Part shown: in pieces, positions 805 to 61,041 of the stretch
How positions within the stretch are numbered: position 1 is the first letter of the stretch
Layout of the letters: each line of letters starts with the position of its first letter
Assembly: GCF_056746865.1 (NCBI RefSeq)
Contig: NZ_CM163382.1
DNA length: 64,000 nt
Direction: 5' to 3' (one strand)
Program-made: the position numbers and the translations under genes
Notes under the pieces: generated by a model
Seen by the model: the letters and a program-made list of their open reading frames with translations, nothing else
The model's database searches: none
What the model was told of the DNA's origin: nothing

Positions 805-915
805 CGTTAGATTGCCTGATGCGCTACGCTTATCAGGCCTACGAGGATCGTGCAATATATTGATTTTGCAAGATTGTGTAGGCCGGATAAGGCGTTTACG
901 CCGCATCTGGCATGA
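805..915. repeat. REP/BIME-like palindromic units
   Basis: gcctgatgcgctacgcttatcaggcctac ... gtaggccggataaggcgtttacgccgcatc, typical REP consensus. Confidence 0.7.
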
Positions 916-1315
916 ACAGTGTGCATTTTGGCAATAAATATGAAACCAACTGTCATGTCGGTTTTTTTAAAGGCCGAAGGTGGTAAACCTTCGGCCTTAG
1001 CTACGTTTCCTCAGTTATTCAATAAACTGACGGATCAGTTCCAGCAGCGCGATTAGCGCCTTAAGAACGATGAGAACTGCCTCTCTCCAAATTAGAGCAC
1101 CAGAATCAGCACCACCTGTATCCTGACCAGGACTTAAAAGTACTTTTCCGCACTGCGGTAATCCCTTGAGGCAGTATCACTACTAGCGTCGGGATTGTAT
1201 CGCCAACATAGCTGTTTGAATATGTAGGCATCCTGACTTATAATTCATTTGCTAGATGAGGACTGTTTCATTTCTGCCCGGAACCACCAAGTCTTGGGCG
1301 GAAAAAATAAAAAAA

Positions 1316-1339
1316 CCGACTGTCATGTCGGTTTTTTTA
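1316..1339. terminator. Bidirectional rho-independent terminator (ccgac-tgtcat-gtcgg hairpin flanked by A- and T-tracts)
   Basis: Perfect stem with A-tract upstream and T-tract downstream; lies just downstream of the selU stop on the minus strand; a near copy occurs at 946-967. Confidence 0.6.
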
Positions 1340-1401
1340 TATCTGTATTCTGGTGCAACCATTCTGTTCTCACGACAATCGCCGTTTCAGAATACCGCCC
1401 A

Positions 1402-14347: not shown

Positions 14348-14433
14348 TTACCTGAATTTACCGCAAAAAAAGCCACGGTATAAACCGTGGCAAAATCCAA
14401 CATAGCTAAAAATAATCAGGCGAGTGGTATGAC

Positions 14434-35834: not shown

Positions 35835-35911
35835 GCGCCCTTAGCTCAGTTGGATAGAGCAACGACCTTCTAAGTCGTGGGCCGCAGGTTCGAATCCTGC
35901 AGGGCGCGCCA
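35835..35911 (+). tRNA. argU: tRNA-Arg (anticodon TCT, reads AGA/AGG)
   Basis: 77-nt cloverleaf GCGCCCTTAGCTCAGTTGGATAGAGC...TCTAA...GGTTCGAATCCTGCAGGGCGCGCCA. Confidence 0.95.
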
Positions 35912-46226: not shown

Positions 46227-46474
46227 CGGTTTTCATCGGTAACACACCATGTAATCTAGCAGTCAGCTTAGAAATAGGAGCGGCAGTTAAAGATTTTTCA
46301 GTTAGTAGAAAATTACTGTTATTGCAGGGATCTAATCACCGGAGAGTCGTTCCATTTGTCTTATGATTACCTGAAGTCCGTTAGTTCGTTGGTAATCACC
46401 GTTTTTGTTAGAGAAGTAAGCATCGCTGACAAAATATTCTCAACGATGCCTGCTTTATTGCTACTACAAATTAA

Positions 46475-47977
46475 TTAAATTGCATCTGCAAACTCTGGGG
46501 TTTTTCGCTCAGGTATAATTGATGAGTTGCTGTTGTCACTTTTTTTATTTTCATGATTACGAATAGCCAATGACTCATTAAAGTCTTTTGCGACTGCTGT
46601 CTCAATAAATTCAATTTCTGAATCAGAGTGTTTTTTAACAGCTTCTTTGATCTCATCCAGAGTAACATAGAAAAACTCTTTTCTACGATTTACAAGATTG
46701 ACTCTCTTTTTATCGAAGACATCATGTAGTTTTTTTTCTAATGATGGAGCGTCCTCCGAATAAATCATGGCATGTACATCAAAAATAAAAGGAACAGATG
46801 CATCACCGAGCTCATTTACACGGTCTTGCGGATCAAGACGTCGTGTCATGCCTATTTTATAAACATTCTCCCCAAAAGAACCTATGTTCGAAATAATATA
46901 AACATGACCTTGTTTGGTTTGTTGTGCCATGGATAATGCTCTTTGATGCTTTGATTCAGCCTGCGACAAACTCTGTTCTAGTTCGGCAATGCGATTTTCG
47001 AGGCGCTGCTTCATGTCACCAGTAACTTTTTCCATTTCCTTTCTTGCAGCTTCAATTGCTTTTTTATAACGGCGCTCTTCTGCCTCTGCGTCTTGCATGG
47101 CCTTTTCTATTTCTCGTTGTGCACGCTCCTCCTCTCTCATTTGTGCCCTTATTTCTGCCTGTTCTTCTTTTTCTTTCTGTTTTTGCTCACGATATTCATG
47201 GGTAAGCCACAATTCCTCAAGTTTTTTATTGAGGTATTTAGTGTTTATATATATGTGATTTTGCTCGTTTAGTTTATTTATGGCCTCAAATGCCTTTGTG
47301 ATGCGTTCTTCCATTTTAGTGATGTTTTTCCACGTGCAATTGCTAATTGCAGCATCACATTCATTATTAAATGCTCTAGTAGTTAGCCTGATATTTCTGT
47401 CTGTCATTTTTTTACCCTCTGCTCGAGAGCCTTCAACAGTCCATTGGGTTGTACAATATACTGCGCCAGAGTGGGTTTTATCCCGCAGCATTAATTTCTG
47501 TTCATCCCTGATGGATTTTATTTTGTTTTTAAATTGCTCTGAATCTTCAAAATTAAAATGAGGTTCGTAAAATCCTAGTTCGGCTAGCTCAACATCTTCT
47601 GAATAAATAGAAATTTGCCTTACTAGTTTATCATATATTTCTTTCTTCTCTTTATAAGTTCTTCTTAGCTCTTGGATTTGTTTATTGATACCATCCATTT
47701 TTTCAATGGTGTTTGTTAGTTCATTATTGGCATTTTCTTTTACTTTTAGGGATTCTTCTTTTATTATGGAGCATTCTTGCTCTGTTTTCTCAATAAGCTT
47801 CTTACATTCTTCTTCTACATTAAAATAATCTGCAAAGCGAGATTTGTATTCTTCATTTTTTTGATTGCTATCACTTAATTCTAATTGTATTTTTTTGATG
47901 CGTTTGATTGCAGCTATATAAAGAACAAGAACAACCAATAAAAATATGATTGCAAGTAATAGAGGAGTTTGAGTCAT
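46475..47977 (-). CDS. Membrane-anchored coiled-coil protein with C-terminal T5orf172/GIY-YIG-like domain (DUF4041-like middle region)
   Basis: 500 aa; N-terminal TM helix (LLLAIIFLLVVLVLYIAAI); long E/K/R-rich coiled coils; C-terminal GHVYIISNIGSFGENVYKIGMTRRLDPQDRVNELGDASVPFIFDVHAMIY; antisense to flanking phage genes; strongly AT-rich. Confidence 0.7.
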   Translation of the reverse strand: MTQTPLLLAIIFLLVVLVLYIAAIKRIKKIQLELSDSNQKNEEYKSRFADYFNVEEECKKLIEKTEQECSIIKEESLKVKENANNELTNTIEKMDGINKQIQELRRTYKEKKEIYDKLVRQISIYSEDVELAELGFYEPHFNFEDSEQFKNKIKSIRDEQKLMLRDKTHSGAVYCTTQWTVEGSRAEGKKMTDRNIRLTTRAFNNECDAAISNCTWKNITKMEERITKAFEAINKLNEQNHIYINTKYLNKKLEELWLTHEYREQKQKEKEEQAEIRAQMREEERAQREIEKAMQDAEAEERRYKKAIEAARKEMEKVTGDMKQRLENRIAELEQSLSQAESKHQRALSMAQQTKQGHVYIISNIGSFGENVYKIGMTRRLDPQDRVNELGDASVPFIFDVHAMIYSEDAPSLEKKLHDVFDKKRVNLVNRRKEFFYVTLDEIKEAVKKHSDSEIEFIETAVAKDFNESLAIRNHENKKSDNSNSSIIPERKTPEFADAI

Positions 47978-48467: not shown

Positions 48468-48789
48468 TTGTAACTGTTGTAGCAGCTATGGATGTGATCA
48501 TCATGGTGTCCATTTACTGGGGTTGACGACATGATTTATCCGGCGCTATATTCTGTGCGTTGCCGCAAAATCGGCACACGGGATTGGCGTCCCGGGATAC
48601 TACTCAACGCATACCGCGTTAAGCGGTTTTTTTGTGCGCTAAGCACGGCTATGCCCAAATTATGGTGGGCTGTGTGAGGGCTTCTTCGGAAGCGCCGGGT
48701 TTGAGTAGCCGGTTACGCCAACCTTACACAGTTCACCACCAGTCGATTGGCGTCGTTGGTGGTGATGGTTAACCTGATGAGGTGATACT

Positions 48790-52400: not shown

Positions 52401-53483
52401 TTAGAACTGGTAAACCAGACCTACAGCAACGATGTCATCAGTATCAATACCAGCTGTTTTGGTAAACTTACTATCGTCAATTAAGTTGATTTTGTAATCA
52501 ACAAAAGTGGACATGTTTTTATTAAAGTAGTAAGTAGCACCGACATCGACATACTTGACTAAGTCTCGGTCACCATGAACACCAAGGTCTTTACCTTTTG
52601 ACTGAAGGTAAGCAACAGATGGGCGCAGACCGAAGTCAAACTGATATTGTGCTACTGCTTCAAAGTTTTGTGCTTTGTTTGCAATATGGTTATTACCAAA
52701 AACGGTCATATTCTGAGTTTCAGAATATGTGGTAGCCAGATAGATATTGTTCGCATCATATTTCAGGCCTGCAGCCCATACTTCCGCATTTTTGCCGGAG
52801 GCATTGAATTTGCTCTTACCATAGGCGACCTGACCGTCAGTGCGATCTGATTTAGCATAGGTTGCACCCACGCCGAATCCTTCATACTCATAAGTAGTGG
52901 AGAAACCGAAACCATCACCATTGGCTTCAGTTACGTCAGTGCGGTCATTTTTACCCTGATACTGAGCAGCAAAGTTCAGGCCATCGACCAGACCAAAGAA
53001 GTCGTTGTTACGATAAGTTGCAACACCAGTAGTGCGACCAGTCATGAACACATCTGTTTGGGTCCAGGTATCACCACCGAATTCTGGCAGGACGTCAGTC
53101 CACGCACCGATGTCGTATGCTACACCGTAGTTACGGCCGTAATCGATTGAGCCGTAATCACCAAATTTCAGGCCTGCAAATGCAAGACGGGTTTTGTCTT
53201 TGGAAGAACCTTGAGATTCAGCGCGGTTGCCTTTGAATTCATATTCCCACTGACCGAAACCAGTCAGTTGATCGTTGATTTGGGTTTCACCTTTGAAGCC
53301 AAGACGGGCATAAGTAGTATCACCATCATCTGCATCATTAGAGGAGAAGTAGTGCTTAGCATTAACTTTCCCGTACAGATCCAGCTTGTTACTGTCTTTA
53401 TTATAAATTTCAGCTGCCTGAGCAGACATCGCCATCAGTACTGATGCAGCTACAGCAGAAATTGCCACTGTTAATTTTTTCAT
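52401..53483 (-). CDS. nmpC: General porin (OmpC/OmpF/NmpC family), uninterrupted
   Basis: 360 aa; signal peptide [23 protein letters not shown]; C-terminal ...GLVYQF. Confidence 0.88.
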
Positions 53484-54056
53484 CGTGAGCCCTTTTTTTT
53501 GAACTATTATTAAAAAATGATGTCACTGCGCGATAAATATTCATCTAATCAATGTGATTATTTCAAGATGTAAGTTTTGGTTTCTCGTTTAATTTGTGAA
53601 GTAGATCTCTATTTTTATCTGAACTTTTTTCTATCGAATCCTATTCATGGCTCTTGGCTGAATAAAAATAAATCTATTAGCCAATTTATATTAATGGCTG
53701 TTATTTATAAGTGCTCTATAATTTGAAGGTTCAATTTAAATTGGCTAAAAATAACGCTGGAAATTATTTGTTGGTTATTTGTTGAGATTTGCTTATGTAT
53801 TTGTAGTGGTGTTTTCAATACTCGGTAGCATTCTCGCAAATATCATTTAGTGGTTTACGTACGTAAAAAATTGGTTATGCTGTTAAGAGTGGTTACTTCG
53901 TCACACAGCTTAAACCCGCCGTCGAGCGGGTTTTTCCATTTTTTGAGTCTCGATATTAGCTGATAACCCAATACCTGAGTTATTCACTGACTCCGAGTCT
54001 GTTACGTTTCGTAGTATTCCCTCAATTTACACCCGCTTTGTCTGCGAGGTGGGGTT

Positions 54057-54272
54057 ATGAAATCCATGGATAAGTTAACAACGGGTGTCGCCTATGGCAC
54101 CTCAGCAGGTAGTGCCGGGTACTGGTTTTTACAGCTGCTCGATAAAGTCACGCCCTCACAGTGGGCAGCAATAGGTGTGCTGGGTAGCCTGGTATTTGGC
54201 CTGCTGACGTACCTGACAAACCTTTATTTCAAGATTAAAGAAGATAAGCGCAAGGCTGCGAGAGGTGAATAA
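54057..54272 (+). CDS. essD: Holin (phage 21 S-like)
   Basis: 71 aa; hydrophobic; first gene of lysis cassette. Confidence 0.85.
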
Positions 54273-54769
54273 TGCCTCCATCATTACGAAAAGCTGTTGC
54301 TGCTGCTATTGGTGGCGGGGCTATTGCTATAGCATCTGTGTTAATCACTGGCCCAAGTGGTAACGATGGTCTGGAAGGTGTGAGACATAATCCTTACAAA
54401 GACATAGTTGGTGTATGGACTGTATGTTACGGGCATACAGGAAAAGACATCATTCCCGGTAAAACGTATACCGAAGCAGAGTGCAAAGCCCTCCTGAATA
54501 AAGACCTTGCCACTGTCGCCAGACAAATTAACCGGTACATCAAAGTCGATATACCGGAAACAACGCGCGGCGCTCTTTACTCGTTCGTCTACAACGTGGG
54601 TGCTGGCAATTTCAGAACATCGACGCTTCTTCGCAAAATAAACCAGGGTGATATTAAAGGCGCATGTGATCAGCTACGGCGCTGGACATACGCTGGCGGT
54701 AATCAATGGAAAGGACTGATGACTCGCCGTGAGATTGAGCGTGAAGTCTGTTTGTGGGGGAAACAATGA
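54272..54769 (+). CDS. rrrD: Endolysin (T4 lysozyme-like)
   Basis: 165 aa; N-terminal SAR-like hydrophobic segment; GH24 lysozyme-like sequence. Confidence 0.88.
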
Positions 54770-55233
54770 GCAGAGTAACCGCGATTATCTCCGCTCTGGT
54801 TATCTGCATCATCGTCTGCCTGTCATGGGCTGTTAATCATTACCGTGATAATGCAATCGCCTACAAAGAACAGCGCGATAACAAGGCCAGTGAACTGGAG
54901 AAGGCGAACGCCACCATTACTGACATGCAGCAGCGCCAGCGTGATGCTGATGCACTCGATGATAAATACACGAAGGAGTTAGCTGATGCGAAAGCTGAAA
55001 ATGATGCTCTTCGGCGCAAGCTTGATAATGGTGGTCGGGTGCTCGTCAAAGGAAAATGCCCTGTGCCATCCTCAGCCGAAACCTCCAGCGCCTCCGGCAT
55101 GGGCAATGATGCCACCGTCGAACTCTCTCCAGTTGCTGGACGAAACGTTCTCGGTATCCGGGACGGAATTATCCGCGACCAAACAGCATTGAGAACGCTT
55201 CAGGAATACATCAGGACGCAATGCCTTCGATGA
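54754..55233 (+). CDS. rzpD: Spanin Rz (i-spanin)
   Basis: 159 aa; N-terminal TM, coiled coil; overlaps endolysin stop. Confidence 0.85.
54986..55192 (+). CDS. rzoD: Spanin Rz1 (o-spanin lipoprotein), embedded in +1 frame of Rz
   Basis: [21 protein letters not shown] lipobox; Pro-rich. Confidence 0.8.
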
Positions 55234-55724
55234 TAGCGATAATTTTACTCATCATCCTTCACATCTGGCTCTGTAGACAGGGTGGTGCTCACTTCTGGAG
55301 TGAATCCAGATTAAACATCTCATTGCTGATGCTTGATATTGAGCATTTTGCGCGCGGTAAGGGGCTGCGTTGAGATAAGAGCCAGTCATTACAAATACCA
55401 GGATTTAGCCTCGCATTCGCGGGGCTTTTTATTGCCATTACAAAAGCCACTTCCTACAGAGTGGCTTTGATAATGGCTTATACCCTACACGGGATAACTT
55501 AACTGATATCCCTTTTAAAGGATAAAGGTATTCAAGCCTGACACATCATGCGCTGTATCGTCGCCGTATTCCCGTATTAACAGAGACCGTAGCCCGACGG
55601 GGAACTCCTTCTGCGCGAGTGTGCGGGAATAATCAATAACGATGCACACCGGGGTTACCGGGTACACATATTTCATCATGCCAGCGAGTCCGGTTCTGGC
55701 ACGGAAGAAACCGGACGTTATGAT

Positions 55725-56135
55725 TTAGTGCGGAAATATTTGTGTAGTGTTCTGAATGTTCTCAGTAAAGAGTAATGAATTATCAAAGGTATAGTAATAC
55801 CTTTTGTTTTCGTGGATATTTGTAATCCATCTGAAAACCCCTGCTGTAGCAAGATTTTTCCTGTATTCGTAAAATGATAACTCTCCTGATTTGAATCCTT
55901 TTAAGGTGGCTTCTATAAGGCATTTATTTTTTGAAAATCTTACATTTACAACCTTACTCTGTCCTTTTATTAAAACCGTATTATCGTTTTCAAGAACAAG
56001 ATGAATATTCTCTGTGGCTAAATAGTAAATGTAATGTGAGACATTGTGACGTTTTAGTTCAGAATAAAACCAGTGATAGTTTAAATTATTTCGCACTTTA
56101 TCGAATATTTGTTTAAAAATGGCAACCTGAGCCAT
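55725..56135 (-). CDS. ybcV: YbcV-like (DUF1398) protein
   Basis: 136 aa from [14 protein letters not shown]...; AT-rich; antisense to lysis and head genes. Confidence 0.6.
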
Positions 56136-56192
56136 TGTAGTACCTTCCATGTGATATGAAGGTACCTAGTCTGCACGATTATCTAAATTGCT

Positions 56193-56426
56193 TCAATCTG
56201 GTCTGACCTGCTTTCTGAGCAATTCAGTAATGTCACTCTTTTCTTTGTTTGCTTCAGGCGAAACTCTTTTTTCTGAGCACAGTCTTCGGCGGCAGGCTTC
56301 AATGACCCAGGCTGAGAAATTCCCGGACCCTTTTTGATCAAGAGCAATGTTAATTTGTTCAATCATTTGGTTAGGAAAGCGGATGTTGCGGGTTGTTGTT
56401 CTGCGGGTTCTGTTCTTCGTTGACAT
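56193..56426 (-). CDS. Small ribbon-helix-helix-like DNA-binding protein (YlcI-like)
   Basis: 77 aa; basic N-terminus; C-terminal ...VIEACRRRL. Confidence 0.45.
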   Translation of the reverse strand: MSTKNRTRRTTTRNIRFPNQMIEQINIALDQKGSGNFSAWVIEACRRRLCSEKRVSPEANKEKSDITELLRKQVRPD

Positions 56427-56623
56427 GAGGTTGTCCCGTATTCAGTGTCGCTGATTTGTATTGTCTGAAGTTGTTTTTACGTTAAGTTGATGCAGATCAA
56501 TTAATATGATACCTGCGTCATAATTGATTATTTGACGTGGTTTGATGGCGTAGATGCACGTTGTGACATGCAGATGATAATTATTATCATTTTGCGGGTC
56601 CTTTCCGGCGATCCGACAGGTTA

Positions 56624-56635
56624 CGGGGCGGCGAC
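56624..56635 (+). other. cosN: lambda cohesive end GGGCGGCGACCT
   Basis: Sequence acg-GGGCGGCGACCT-cgcgggttttcgctatttatgaaaattttccgg matches the lambda genome termini as I recall them; cosB repeats follow toward Nu1. Confidence 0.85.
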
Positions 56636-56814
56636 CTCGCGGGTTTTCGCTATTTATGAAAATTTTCCGGTTTAAGGCGTTTCCGTTCTTCTTCGTCGTA
56701 ACTTAATGTTTTTATTTAAAATACCCCCTGAAAAGAAAGGAAACGACAGGTGCTGAAAACGAACTTTTGGGCCTCTGTCGTTTCCTTTCTCTGTTTTTGG
56801 CCGTGGAATGAACA

Positions 56815-57334
56815 ATGGAAGTCAACAAAAAGCAGCTGGCTGACATTTTCGGTGCGAGTATCCGTACCATTCAGAACTGGCAGGAACAGGGAATGCCCGT
56901 TCTGCGAGGCGGTGGCAAGGGTAATGAGGTGCTTTATGACTCTGCCGCCGTTATAAGATGGTATGCCGAAAGGGATGCTGAAATTGAGAACGAAAAGCTG
57001 CGCCGGGAAGTTGAAGAACTGCGGCAGGCCAGCGAGACAGATCTCCAGCCAGGGACTATTGAGTACGAACGCCATCGACTTACGCGTGCGCAGGCCGACG
57101 CACAGGAGCTGAAAAATGCCAGAGACTCCGCTGAAGTGGTGGAAACCGCATTCTGTACTTTCGTGCTGTCGCGGATCGCAGGTGAAATTGCCAGTATTCT
57201 CGACGGGATCCCCCTGTCGGTGCAGCGGCGTTTTCCGGAACTGGAAAACCGACATGTTGATTTCCTGAAACGGGATATCATCAAAGCCATGAACAAAGCA
57301 GCCGCGCTGGATGAACTGATACCGGGGTTGCTGA

Positions 57335-57360
<26 letters not shown>
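56815..57360 (+). CDS. nu1: Terminase small subunit Nu1
   Basis: 181 aa, near-identical to lambda Nu1. Confidence 0.95.

Positions 57361-61041
<3,681 letters not shown>

Follow-up and report, generated by a model that had tools for sequence, protein, structure and literature searches.

What fills the space between the lysis cassette and the cohesive-end site (cos) of a lambdoid prophage in which bor is not found? We consider this for a 64,000-nucleotide stretch of DNA (NCBI RefSeq assembly GCF_056746865.1, contig NZ_CM163382.1; hereafter the window) that contains an intact DLP12-like lambdoid prophage of Escherichia coli. An earlier note on this DNA had drawn attention to the interval following Rz/Rz1 (positions 55234-55724), proposing that it is a moron slot that might hold a short lipoprotein gene or a degraded bor. 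Between the lysis genes and the packaging genes, the gap forms a spacer of mosaic composition, as is ordinary among lambdoid phages. It is made up of a module of HK620/Sf6 type (55014-55432), an empty insertion site (55433/55434) with an adjacent hairpin, and a conserved 167-nucleotide (nt) element (55549-55715) that matches phage lambda from coordinate 46868 to ~47040 and is also present in DLP12, 434 and 24B (Table 1). The locus is ordinary overall, with this element as its one mildly interesting, unannotated conserved component.

The element was found in 432 phage records, including those of lambda, 434 and the Shiga toxin (Stx) phages, and 73 unique copies, drawn from reference phages and viral contigs, were aligned, with reading frames scored in 70 variants. 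In these 73 copies the left boundary is always at 55549 and the right one is close to 55715, and at least five different unrelated flanks adjoin the element on each side. All copies are at least ~80% identical and derive from phages of Escherichia, Shigella and Salmonella; a scan of one genome per bacterial species restricts the element to Escherichia, beyond chance matches. In compact relatives (33 loci) the Rz stop codon is just 10 nt before the element, and at other loci the two are separated by 264-504 nt corresponding to bor, to the orf50 module described below, or to other sequence. On the right the element is followed directly by cos and nu1, by a 24B-type small terminase gene, or by DUF1398, ybcW and ylcI, such that it sits upstream of Nu1-type and 24B-type terminase genes alike, and within a few hundred nt of the small-terminase gene in the compact relatives. 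Because the edges are constant while the insertions vary both to the left (bor, orf50 plus terminator, KilA-N) and to the right (DUF1398, ybcW, ylcI), the element is in effect a fixed landmark, with a slot for morons on either side.

The aligned copies point to a structure formed by the sense strand of the late operon. The RNAalifold consensus is -22.5 kcal/mol for the plus strand versus -7.6 kcal/mol for the minus strand, and on the plus strand it predicts a long imperfect hairpin with two principal helices and two small apical hairpins, a middle hairpin that varies in both sequence and length, and a terminal 3′ hairpin. The fold contains 31 consensus pairs, and 98.7% of the 1482 pair cells are standard; neither the observed pairing nor the covariation score was reached by any of 500 shuffles, and slid controls pair at 32-57%. 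Four pairs have undergone compensatory change, including double transversions from C-G to G-C and from G-C to U-A, and pair 55692/55712 of the 3′ hairpin covaries (G-C, n=25; U-A, n=8; G-U, n=9). One-sided changes generate G·U pairs in 167 cells when read on the plus strand versus 5 on the minus strand. Variation within the core affects 10 of 46 paired columns versus 28 of 52 unpaired ones, and the 9-nt deletion that occurs naturally in Stx2_EH0787 takes out an apical hairpin and nothing else. An all-against-all scan for covariation between column pairs was too noisy for use.

We tentatively interpret the element as a sense-strand RNA structure that acts in cis, 3′ of the lysis genes, on how the late transcript is processed or how stable it is, and we put the chances of this a little below even. 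Acting as RNA, the long imperfect hairpin and the 3′ hairpin would form directly downstream of the lysis cassette, where their most likely role would be to set how the part of the long late transcript carrying the lysis genes is processed or stabilised, perhaps as a barrier to 3′ exonucleases or as a site for a double-strand nuclease. The broader proposal, that 55549-55715 (lambda 46868-~47040) is an undescribed structured cis-RNA controlling processing, stability or read-through of the late transcript where the lysis genes give way to the morphogenesis genes, and a conserved discrete unit between the lysis and packaging modules of lambda, 434, DLP12 and the Stx phages, seems to us possible although doubtful.

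The unannotated element belongs to a well-known class, that of the conserved, structured, non-coding elements of phage operons. In polycistronic operons, stem-loops between or 3′ of genes can set segmental mRNA stability or processing, as do sib and the N leader, both RNase III sites, in lambda. The element is similar in having a predicted long imperfect sense-strand hairpin that directly follows the last gene of a functional block and has a conserved stem and a variable tip; it differs in having no sequence similarity to known sites of this kind and in falling outside Rfam. AgvB and AsxR, convergent prophage small RNAs (sRNAs) of 51-60 nt that bind Hfq and are encoded between Q and the lysis genes (PMC4104026), are likewise short, conserved and non-coding and occupy fixed lambdoid positions near moron slots and convergent terminators, whereas the element described here follows Rz, is ~167 nt long and has no Rfam family.

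Several considerations weigh against a cis-acting RNA. The function is purely inferred, and since the element is hundreds of nt from Rz in both lambda and the window, any role at the 3′ end of the lysis genes would be indirect in these genomes. The folding energy of single sequences is no better than that of shuffles (z of -0.48 for the plus strand and -0.88 for the minus strand). Sequence diversity is low and, because the copies are so closely related and restricted to enterobacterial phages, the covariation rests on few independent events; relatedness can beat a shuffle control, and one and the same alignment served both to derive the structure and to score it. The G·U asymmetry could come in part from strand-biased C-to-T and A-to-G mutation rather than from selection on RNA. 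Compared with what is expected of a structured cis-RNA, the level of pairing, the four compensatory pairs, the G·U excess and the apical position of the one deletion examined agree, and the low diversity, the non-significant z-scores and the use of a single alignment for deriving and scoring the fold weigh against it.

Two other explanations of the element have to be weighed. It could be read on the minus strand as the 3′ untranslated region and terminator of DUF1398/ylcI transcripts, insulating the lysis genes from antisense transcription. In that orientation the composite hairpin is followed by a conserved run, CGTTTTTGATTAT, in about half of the variants the minimum-energy fold has a stem that ends 0-4 nt ahead of this U run, the element begins 10 nt past the DUF1398 stop codon in the window, lambda and DLP12, and a second minus-strand terminator-like hairpin is present at 55443-55468. 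However, the minus-strand consensus fold is the weak one, 12% of the pair cells become A·C mismatches on that strand, and the stems preceding the U run are long-range and variant-dependent. A terminator also leaves unexplained ~85 conserved nt past the U run, which in the window's own copy is interrupted (TTATT, owing to a T at 55637), and many compact loci that have the element show, to its right, no homolog of the minus-strand genes that were tested. We consider a minus-strand terminator improbable.

Alternatively the element may have no function, being an old imperfect palindrome or spacer remnant, kept nearly identical by shared recent ancestry, that serves as a passive homology 'linker' for lambdoid recombination, and this we consider unlikely. 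The close similarity of the copies and their restriction to enterobacterial lambdoid phages are consistent with such a remnant, as are the non-significant folding z-scores, and homologous exchange inside a shared patch is expected to produce sharp edges with shuffled flanks. A passive patch does not, however, account for paired columns being more conserved than unpaired ones, for two-sided compensatory transversions in two separate helices, for one-sided changes that nearly all preserve pairing on one strand, or for the sole natural deletion examined removing only the apical hairpin, and even the most compact spacers between Rz and the terminase genes still contain the element. The cis-acting RNA reading, if true, would add a new regulatory feature to one of the best-studied genomes, that of lambda, common to 434, DLP12 and the Stx phages, which are of medical importance, and the element would be a landmark defining a left slot (bor, KilA-N or orf50) and a right slot (DUF1398, ybcW or ylcI). 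Little is at stake in the gap itself, which is resolved as a part of the prophage map; what it contributes is an unannotated and sharply bounded element, placed after the lysis cassette, with signs of selection on a sense-strand hairpin.

The element is probably non-coding. The earlier note had mentioned a possible minus-strand ORF (open reading frame) of ~58 residues beginning MMKYVYPVTPV; the frame exists, although it has 54 codons, and it appears to be a chance opening over the element, an artefact of the element's conservation, rather than a gene. A genuine gene for a small protein, transcribed together with the DUF1398 gene, would fit with the absence of stop codons across the core in 64 of 70 variants and with the hypothetical-protein calls made for it in phage Kati and several genome annotations. 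Its length, however, ranges from 22 to 121 aa across the copies, usually with a GTG start that lacks a Shine-Dalgarno sequence, and a stop codon or frameshift breaks it in lambda, DLP12 and 24B, where the DNA beyond the stop is nonetheless conserved. Non-synonymous changes outnumber synonymous ones, near the neutral expectation, as read from alignments and translations. Pfam, PHROG and NCBIfam contain no match to it, and among 5.8 billion proteins it corresponds to 56 clusters of hypothetical proteins (42-79 aa), almost all labelled Escherichia or Shigella, with no longer parent protein. It is not called in the annotation of an identical E. coli genome. The frame thus lacks the conserved start, length and frame, the purifying selection and the ribosome-binding site of a small gene, and its being one is very improbable; automated small-ORF calls at this position, such as those in Kati and several genomes, are probably spurious.

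Plus-strand frames over the element are equally inconsistent, extending for 5-207 aa, and none of the frames scored in the 70 variants combines openness with a conserved start and length. Two plus-strand candidates, vb_24B_26 of phage 24B and a 10-codon mini-ORF, were rejected because starts, stops and lengths are not conserved. The mini-ORF (55548-55580, plus strand) has an ATG that opens the element in 59 of 73 copies, encodes M R C/R/G/S I V A V F P Y/H followed by an invariant TAA, and takes in the 5′ arm of each of helices 1 and 2; no Shine-Dalgarno sequence precedes it, and the frame is another one in lambda. In the compact phages its ATG is 9 nt past the Rz stop codon, such that re-initiating ribosomes could melt the hairpin.

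No functional annotation is attached to the element in the records of lambda, 434, HK620 or K-12, no description of it was found in the literature on lambdap78, ybcV, borD or late-transcript features of lambda, and some phage records place hypothetical-protein ORFs over it. A search of 53000-57500 with every family in the Rfam library yielded no gathering-level match, the only match in the gap being to STnc560 (55305-55496; 19.9 bits versus a threshold of 55, E = 0.59). We rejected the bor promoter, as the direct repeat found upstream of bor lies between bor and the element in lambda, and a part of cos, as in lambda 1.5 kb separates the element from cosN and as it also accompanies non-lambda terminases. 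A scan places no sigma-70 promoter in the core; a weak plus-strand match (9-of-12, 55696-55724) overlaps the 3′ hairpin. A prophage anti-sRNA or Pas sRNA was likewise set aside, the anti-sRNAs being located elsewhere and the published accounts silent on this region. At 55637 the window has T where 71 of 73 copies have A, changing TCAAAAA to TCAATAA. In three viral contigs (L084-L086) the right part of the element, in minus orientation, is replaced by a 339-aa ORF containing PLSVPVALPDL-like repeats and continuing directly into the conserved core, reflecting either a recombination junction inside the element or an assembly chimera.

In favour of a concealed bor, this gene immediately follows Rz, on the minus strand, in lambda, DLP12, 434 and Stx phage 24B, the position equivalent to the gap. 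A tblastn search of the whole window with lambda Bor gave a best E value of 7.3, outside the gap, and a blastn search of the whole window with lambda 46428-46867, including the promoter, gave no match. The window's ORF listing contains no ORF of the Bor/Iss lipoprotein kind (PF06291; ~97 aa with a lipobox), and no lipobox was seen by eye among the listed small ORFs of the gap, the sole lipoprotein-like ORF nearby being Rz1. The direct repeat TGTTTAGGGTTTGTTTA, which we take to be a PhoP box and which sits upstream of bor in lambda, DLP12 and 24B, is also absent. Homology to lambda, DLP12 and 434 breaks cleanly at 55013, in the middle of Rz, and resumes at 55549. A clean break and no bor remnant together indicate replacement of a module rather than decay, and the ancestral bor segment was cleanly replaced, leaving no trace. 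With neither protein nor DNA remnant, a degraded bor or lom-type gene is rejected, and we give virtually no credence to a degraded bor or another short lipoprotein gene in the gap.

The absence of ORFs of 60 aa or more from 55234-55724, as the earlier note reported, is borne out by the ORF listing, in which the longest are 54, 53 and 50 aa. It is unremarkable for 491 bp, since a run of 60 codons without a stop is also missing from 16% of mononucleotide shuffles of this interval. Many E. coli chromosomes are 100% identical to the window over 55200-55760, and 3461 of 5426 complete genomes match some or all of these positions. In the public record NZ_CP032515.1 the locus tags (RS03140-RS03150) skip RS03145 between the 50-aa ORF and the DUF1398 gene, which suggests that a feature formerly called in the gap was later withdrawn.

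The replacing sequence is of HK620/Sf6 type. From 55014 onward the 3′ half of Rz is of this type and not of the lambda/DLP12 type, and HK620 is 95.5% identical to the window across 54766-55432. Relative to lambda and DLP12, an HK620-type module takes the place of bor, its direct repeat and the lambda-type 3′ half of Rz. The Rz 3′ half, a 50-aa ORF (orf50), a terminator and the following hairpin are held in common with the P22-like phages HK620, Sf6 and phi330. The earlier note overlooked orf50 (55221-55373), which overlaps Rz, starting 13 nt before the Rz stop codon with an AGGA 5 nt upstream. Its product has a hydrophobic N-terminal half and matches phrog_11822 (E = 1.8e-36). Of 44 phage records, 42 have it in full length with 90-100% identity, among them those of Sf6 (gp65) and epsilon34 (gp67), and eight DNA variants have 5 synonymous and 9 non-synonymous variable sites, with synonymous changes only in codons 1-22. 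On this thin evidence orf50 may encode a real small membrane protein. The module ends with a predicted strong intrinsic terminator that is kept with it in HK620; as expected of such a terminator, it has a G+C-rich stem-loop (55407-55426; 8 bp including 6 G-C, 4-nt loop) followed by a U run, TTTTTATT.

Immediately beyond, at the position equivalent to 55433/55434 and between the terminator and the next hairpin, HK620 and phi330 carry hkbK (KilA-N) and hkbL. HK620 homology stops at 55432, and the sole match to the right of the moron, among the HK620 matches examined, is one of 32 nt at 55459-55490. Homology to phi330 restarts at 55434, right after the hkbL-like stop codon, and covers 55434-55667; because it resumes directly past this stop, 55433/55434 corresponds to an unoccupied insertion site, with the KilA-N/hkbL moron missing from the window. 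The following hairpin is terminator-like mainly on the minus strand, where it has a UUUUGU tail, and is only weakly so on the other strand. At this position HK620 and phi330 have a different stem (AAGCCCA/TGGGCTT), so that the pairing has been preserved through changes in both arms.

The description of this interval as another moron slot is thus well founded, given KilA-N plus hkbL at 55433/55434 in HK620 and phi330, and bor between Rz and the element in lambda, DLP12, 434 and 24B. Presence or absence at fixed junctions, as expected of morons, is seen for bor, KilA-N/hkbL, DUF1398, ybcW and ylcI. Deviant composition is seen for the DUF1398 gene, which at 31.5% GC, versus 49.6% for the window, fits a moron.

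Two antisense genes are present between the gap and cos, as had been noted, and correspond to DUF1398 and YlcI/YnfO (DUF3950) genes. The arrangement has the same order as Rz-bor-ybcV(lambdap78)-ybcW-ylcI-cos of lambda and DLP12, with the lysis cassette, antisense DUF1398 and DUF3950 genes, cos and nu1. Identity to these phages is ~83% over 55549-56217, which includes the DUF1398 gene, and in DLP12 the element occupies the borD-ybcV intergenic region. The window differs in lacking ybcW and in the longer and different tail of its YlcI-like protein (77 aa versus 64 aa). The assignment of the first gene as DUF1398-like is secure, with matches to PF07166 (E = 6.5e-43, profile positions 1-119 of 119) and to YdfO (PDB 2HH8; E = 9.8e-70). 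Both genes had been described as AT-rich, which holds for DUF1398 and not really for the 77-aa gene, since the latter is 44.4% GC.

The 77-aa protein matches PF13132 (E = 5e-21, 74.6 bits versus a cut-off of 25) and NF041551 (35.7 bits versus a cut-off of 30), and is composed of a conserved N-terminal 50 aa with a strand-helix-helix arrangement and a variable C-terminal tail. An AlphaFold model has a mean pLDDT (predicted local distance difference test) score of 66, is extended before residue 19 and has helices at 19-32 and 34-54. Its best PDB fold matches include the ribbon-helix-helix (RHH) proteins ParD and Arc and are non-significant (E of at least 3.6), and a HicB-like PHROG is matched with an E value of 0.007. 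The earlier label of 'RHH-like' is at most plausible. PADLOC gives no defence-system match for the DUF1398 and DUF3950 pair, and no promoter was found upstream of the two minus-strand genes in a scan around the locus, which returned 4 sites versus ~4 expected by chance.

Table 1. Features of the prophage region from the antiterminator gene to nu1, in coordinates of the window.
Feature	Position	Strand	Remarks
Antiterminator gene	upstream of porin gene		annotated quuD in identical E. coli genome
Porin gene, ompC/nmpC-like	52401-53483	minus	intact, 360 aa
Holin	54057-54272
Lysozyme	54272-54769
Rz (i-spanin)	54766-55233	plus	start as annotated in identical E. coli genome
Rz1 (o-spanin lipoprotein), embedded in Rz	54986-55192	plus	68 aa; lipobox VVGC read from sequence
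orf50, conserved 50-aa ORF	55221-55373	plus	hypothetical protein in identical E. coli genome annotation
Intrinsic terminator (predicted)	55407-55434	plus	terminator scan
Empty moron insertion junction	55433/55434	none	from homology ends of HK620 and phi330
Second hairpin	55443-55468	none	arms AAAGCCACT / AGTGGCTTT, 8-nt loop; read from sequence
54-aa ORF (MMKYVYPVTPV...)	55515-55679	minus	judged not a gene
Conserved lambdoid element	55549-55715	plus	167 nt; core 55549-55656, variable middle hairpin, 3′ hairpin with loop GGTGGAAGAAA
Long imperfect hairpin (predicted)	55555-55645	plus	RNAalifold consensus
Helix 1	55555-55561 with 55639-55645	plus
Helix 2	55567-55577 with 55621-55631	plus
Two small apical hairpins	55593-55602, 55609-55619	plus
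3′ hairpin	55690-55714	plus	stem CCGGT/ACCGG, 15-nt loop; GGAAGAAA conserved in all copies
DUF1398 (YbcV/YdfO-like) gene	55725-56150	minus	public annotation start 56135
YlcI/YnfO (DUF3950) gene	56193-56426	minus	77 aa
cosN cohesive-end sequence	56626-56637	plus	GGGCGGCGACCT; read from sequence
nu1	56815-57360		read from sequence; large terminase gene next

The cosN sequence agrees with the left end of lambda. Between cos and nu1 there is a near-perfect inverted repeat (56731-56793) that gives a spurious mir-578 match (E = 0.56) and which we take to be the terminase-binding repeats of lambda cosB, a known feature. Upstream of the lysis cassette the porin gene is a moron between the antiterminator and holin genes; the copy in K-12 DLP12, nmpC, is split by IS5. 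The 570-nt spacer between the porin and holin genes (53484-54056) has no Rfam match and is at the pre-holin position where convergent prophage sRNAs are reported in other lambdoid prophages (PMC4104026).

Elsewhere in the window, gathering-level Rfam matches include isrK (48561-48633, plus strand, 58.7 bits) and C4 antisense RNA (48658-48743, plus strand, 74.8 bits), which are 25 nt apart and constitute a known phage-associated RNA pair upstream of the late region. Additional matches at this level are to ES036/CssrF (835-877, minus strand), AgrB antisense RNA (1252-1340, plus strand), STnc480 (14361-14427, plus strand) and a tRNA (35835-35908, plus strand); the tRNA, at 35.8 kb, may mark the boundary of a prophage or island.

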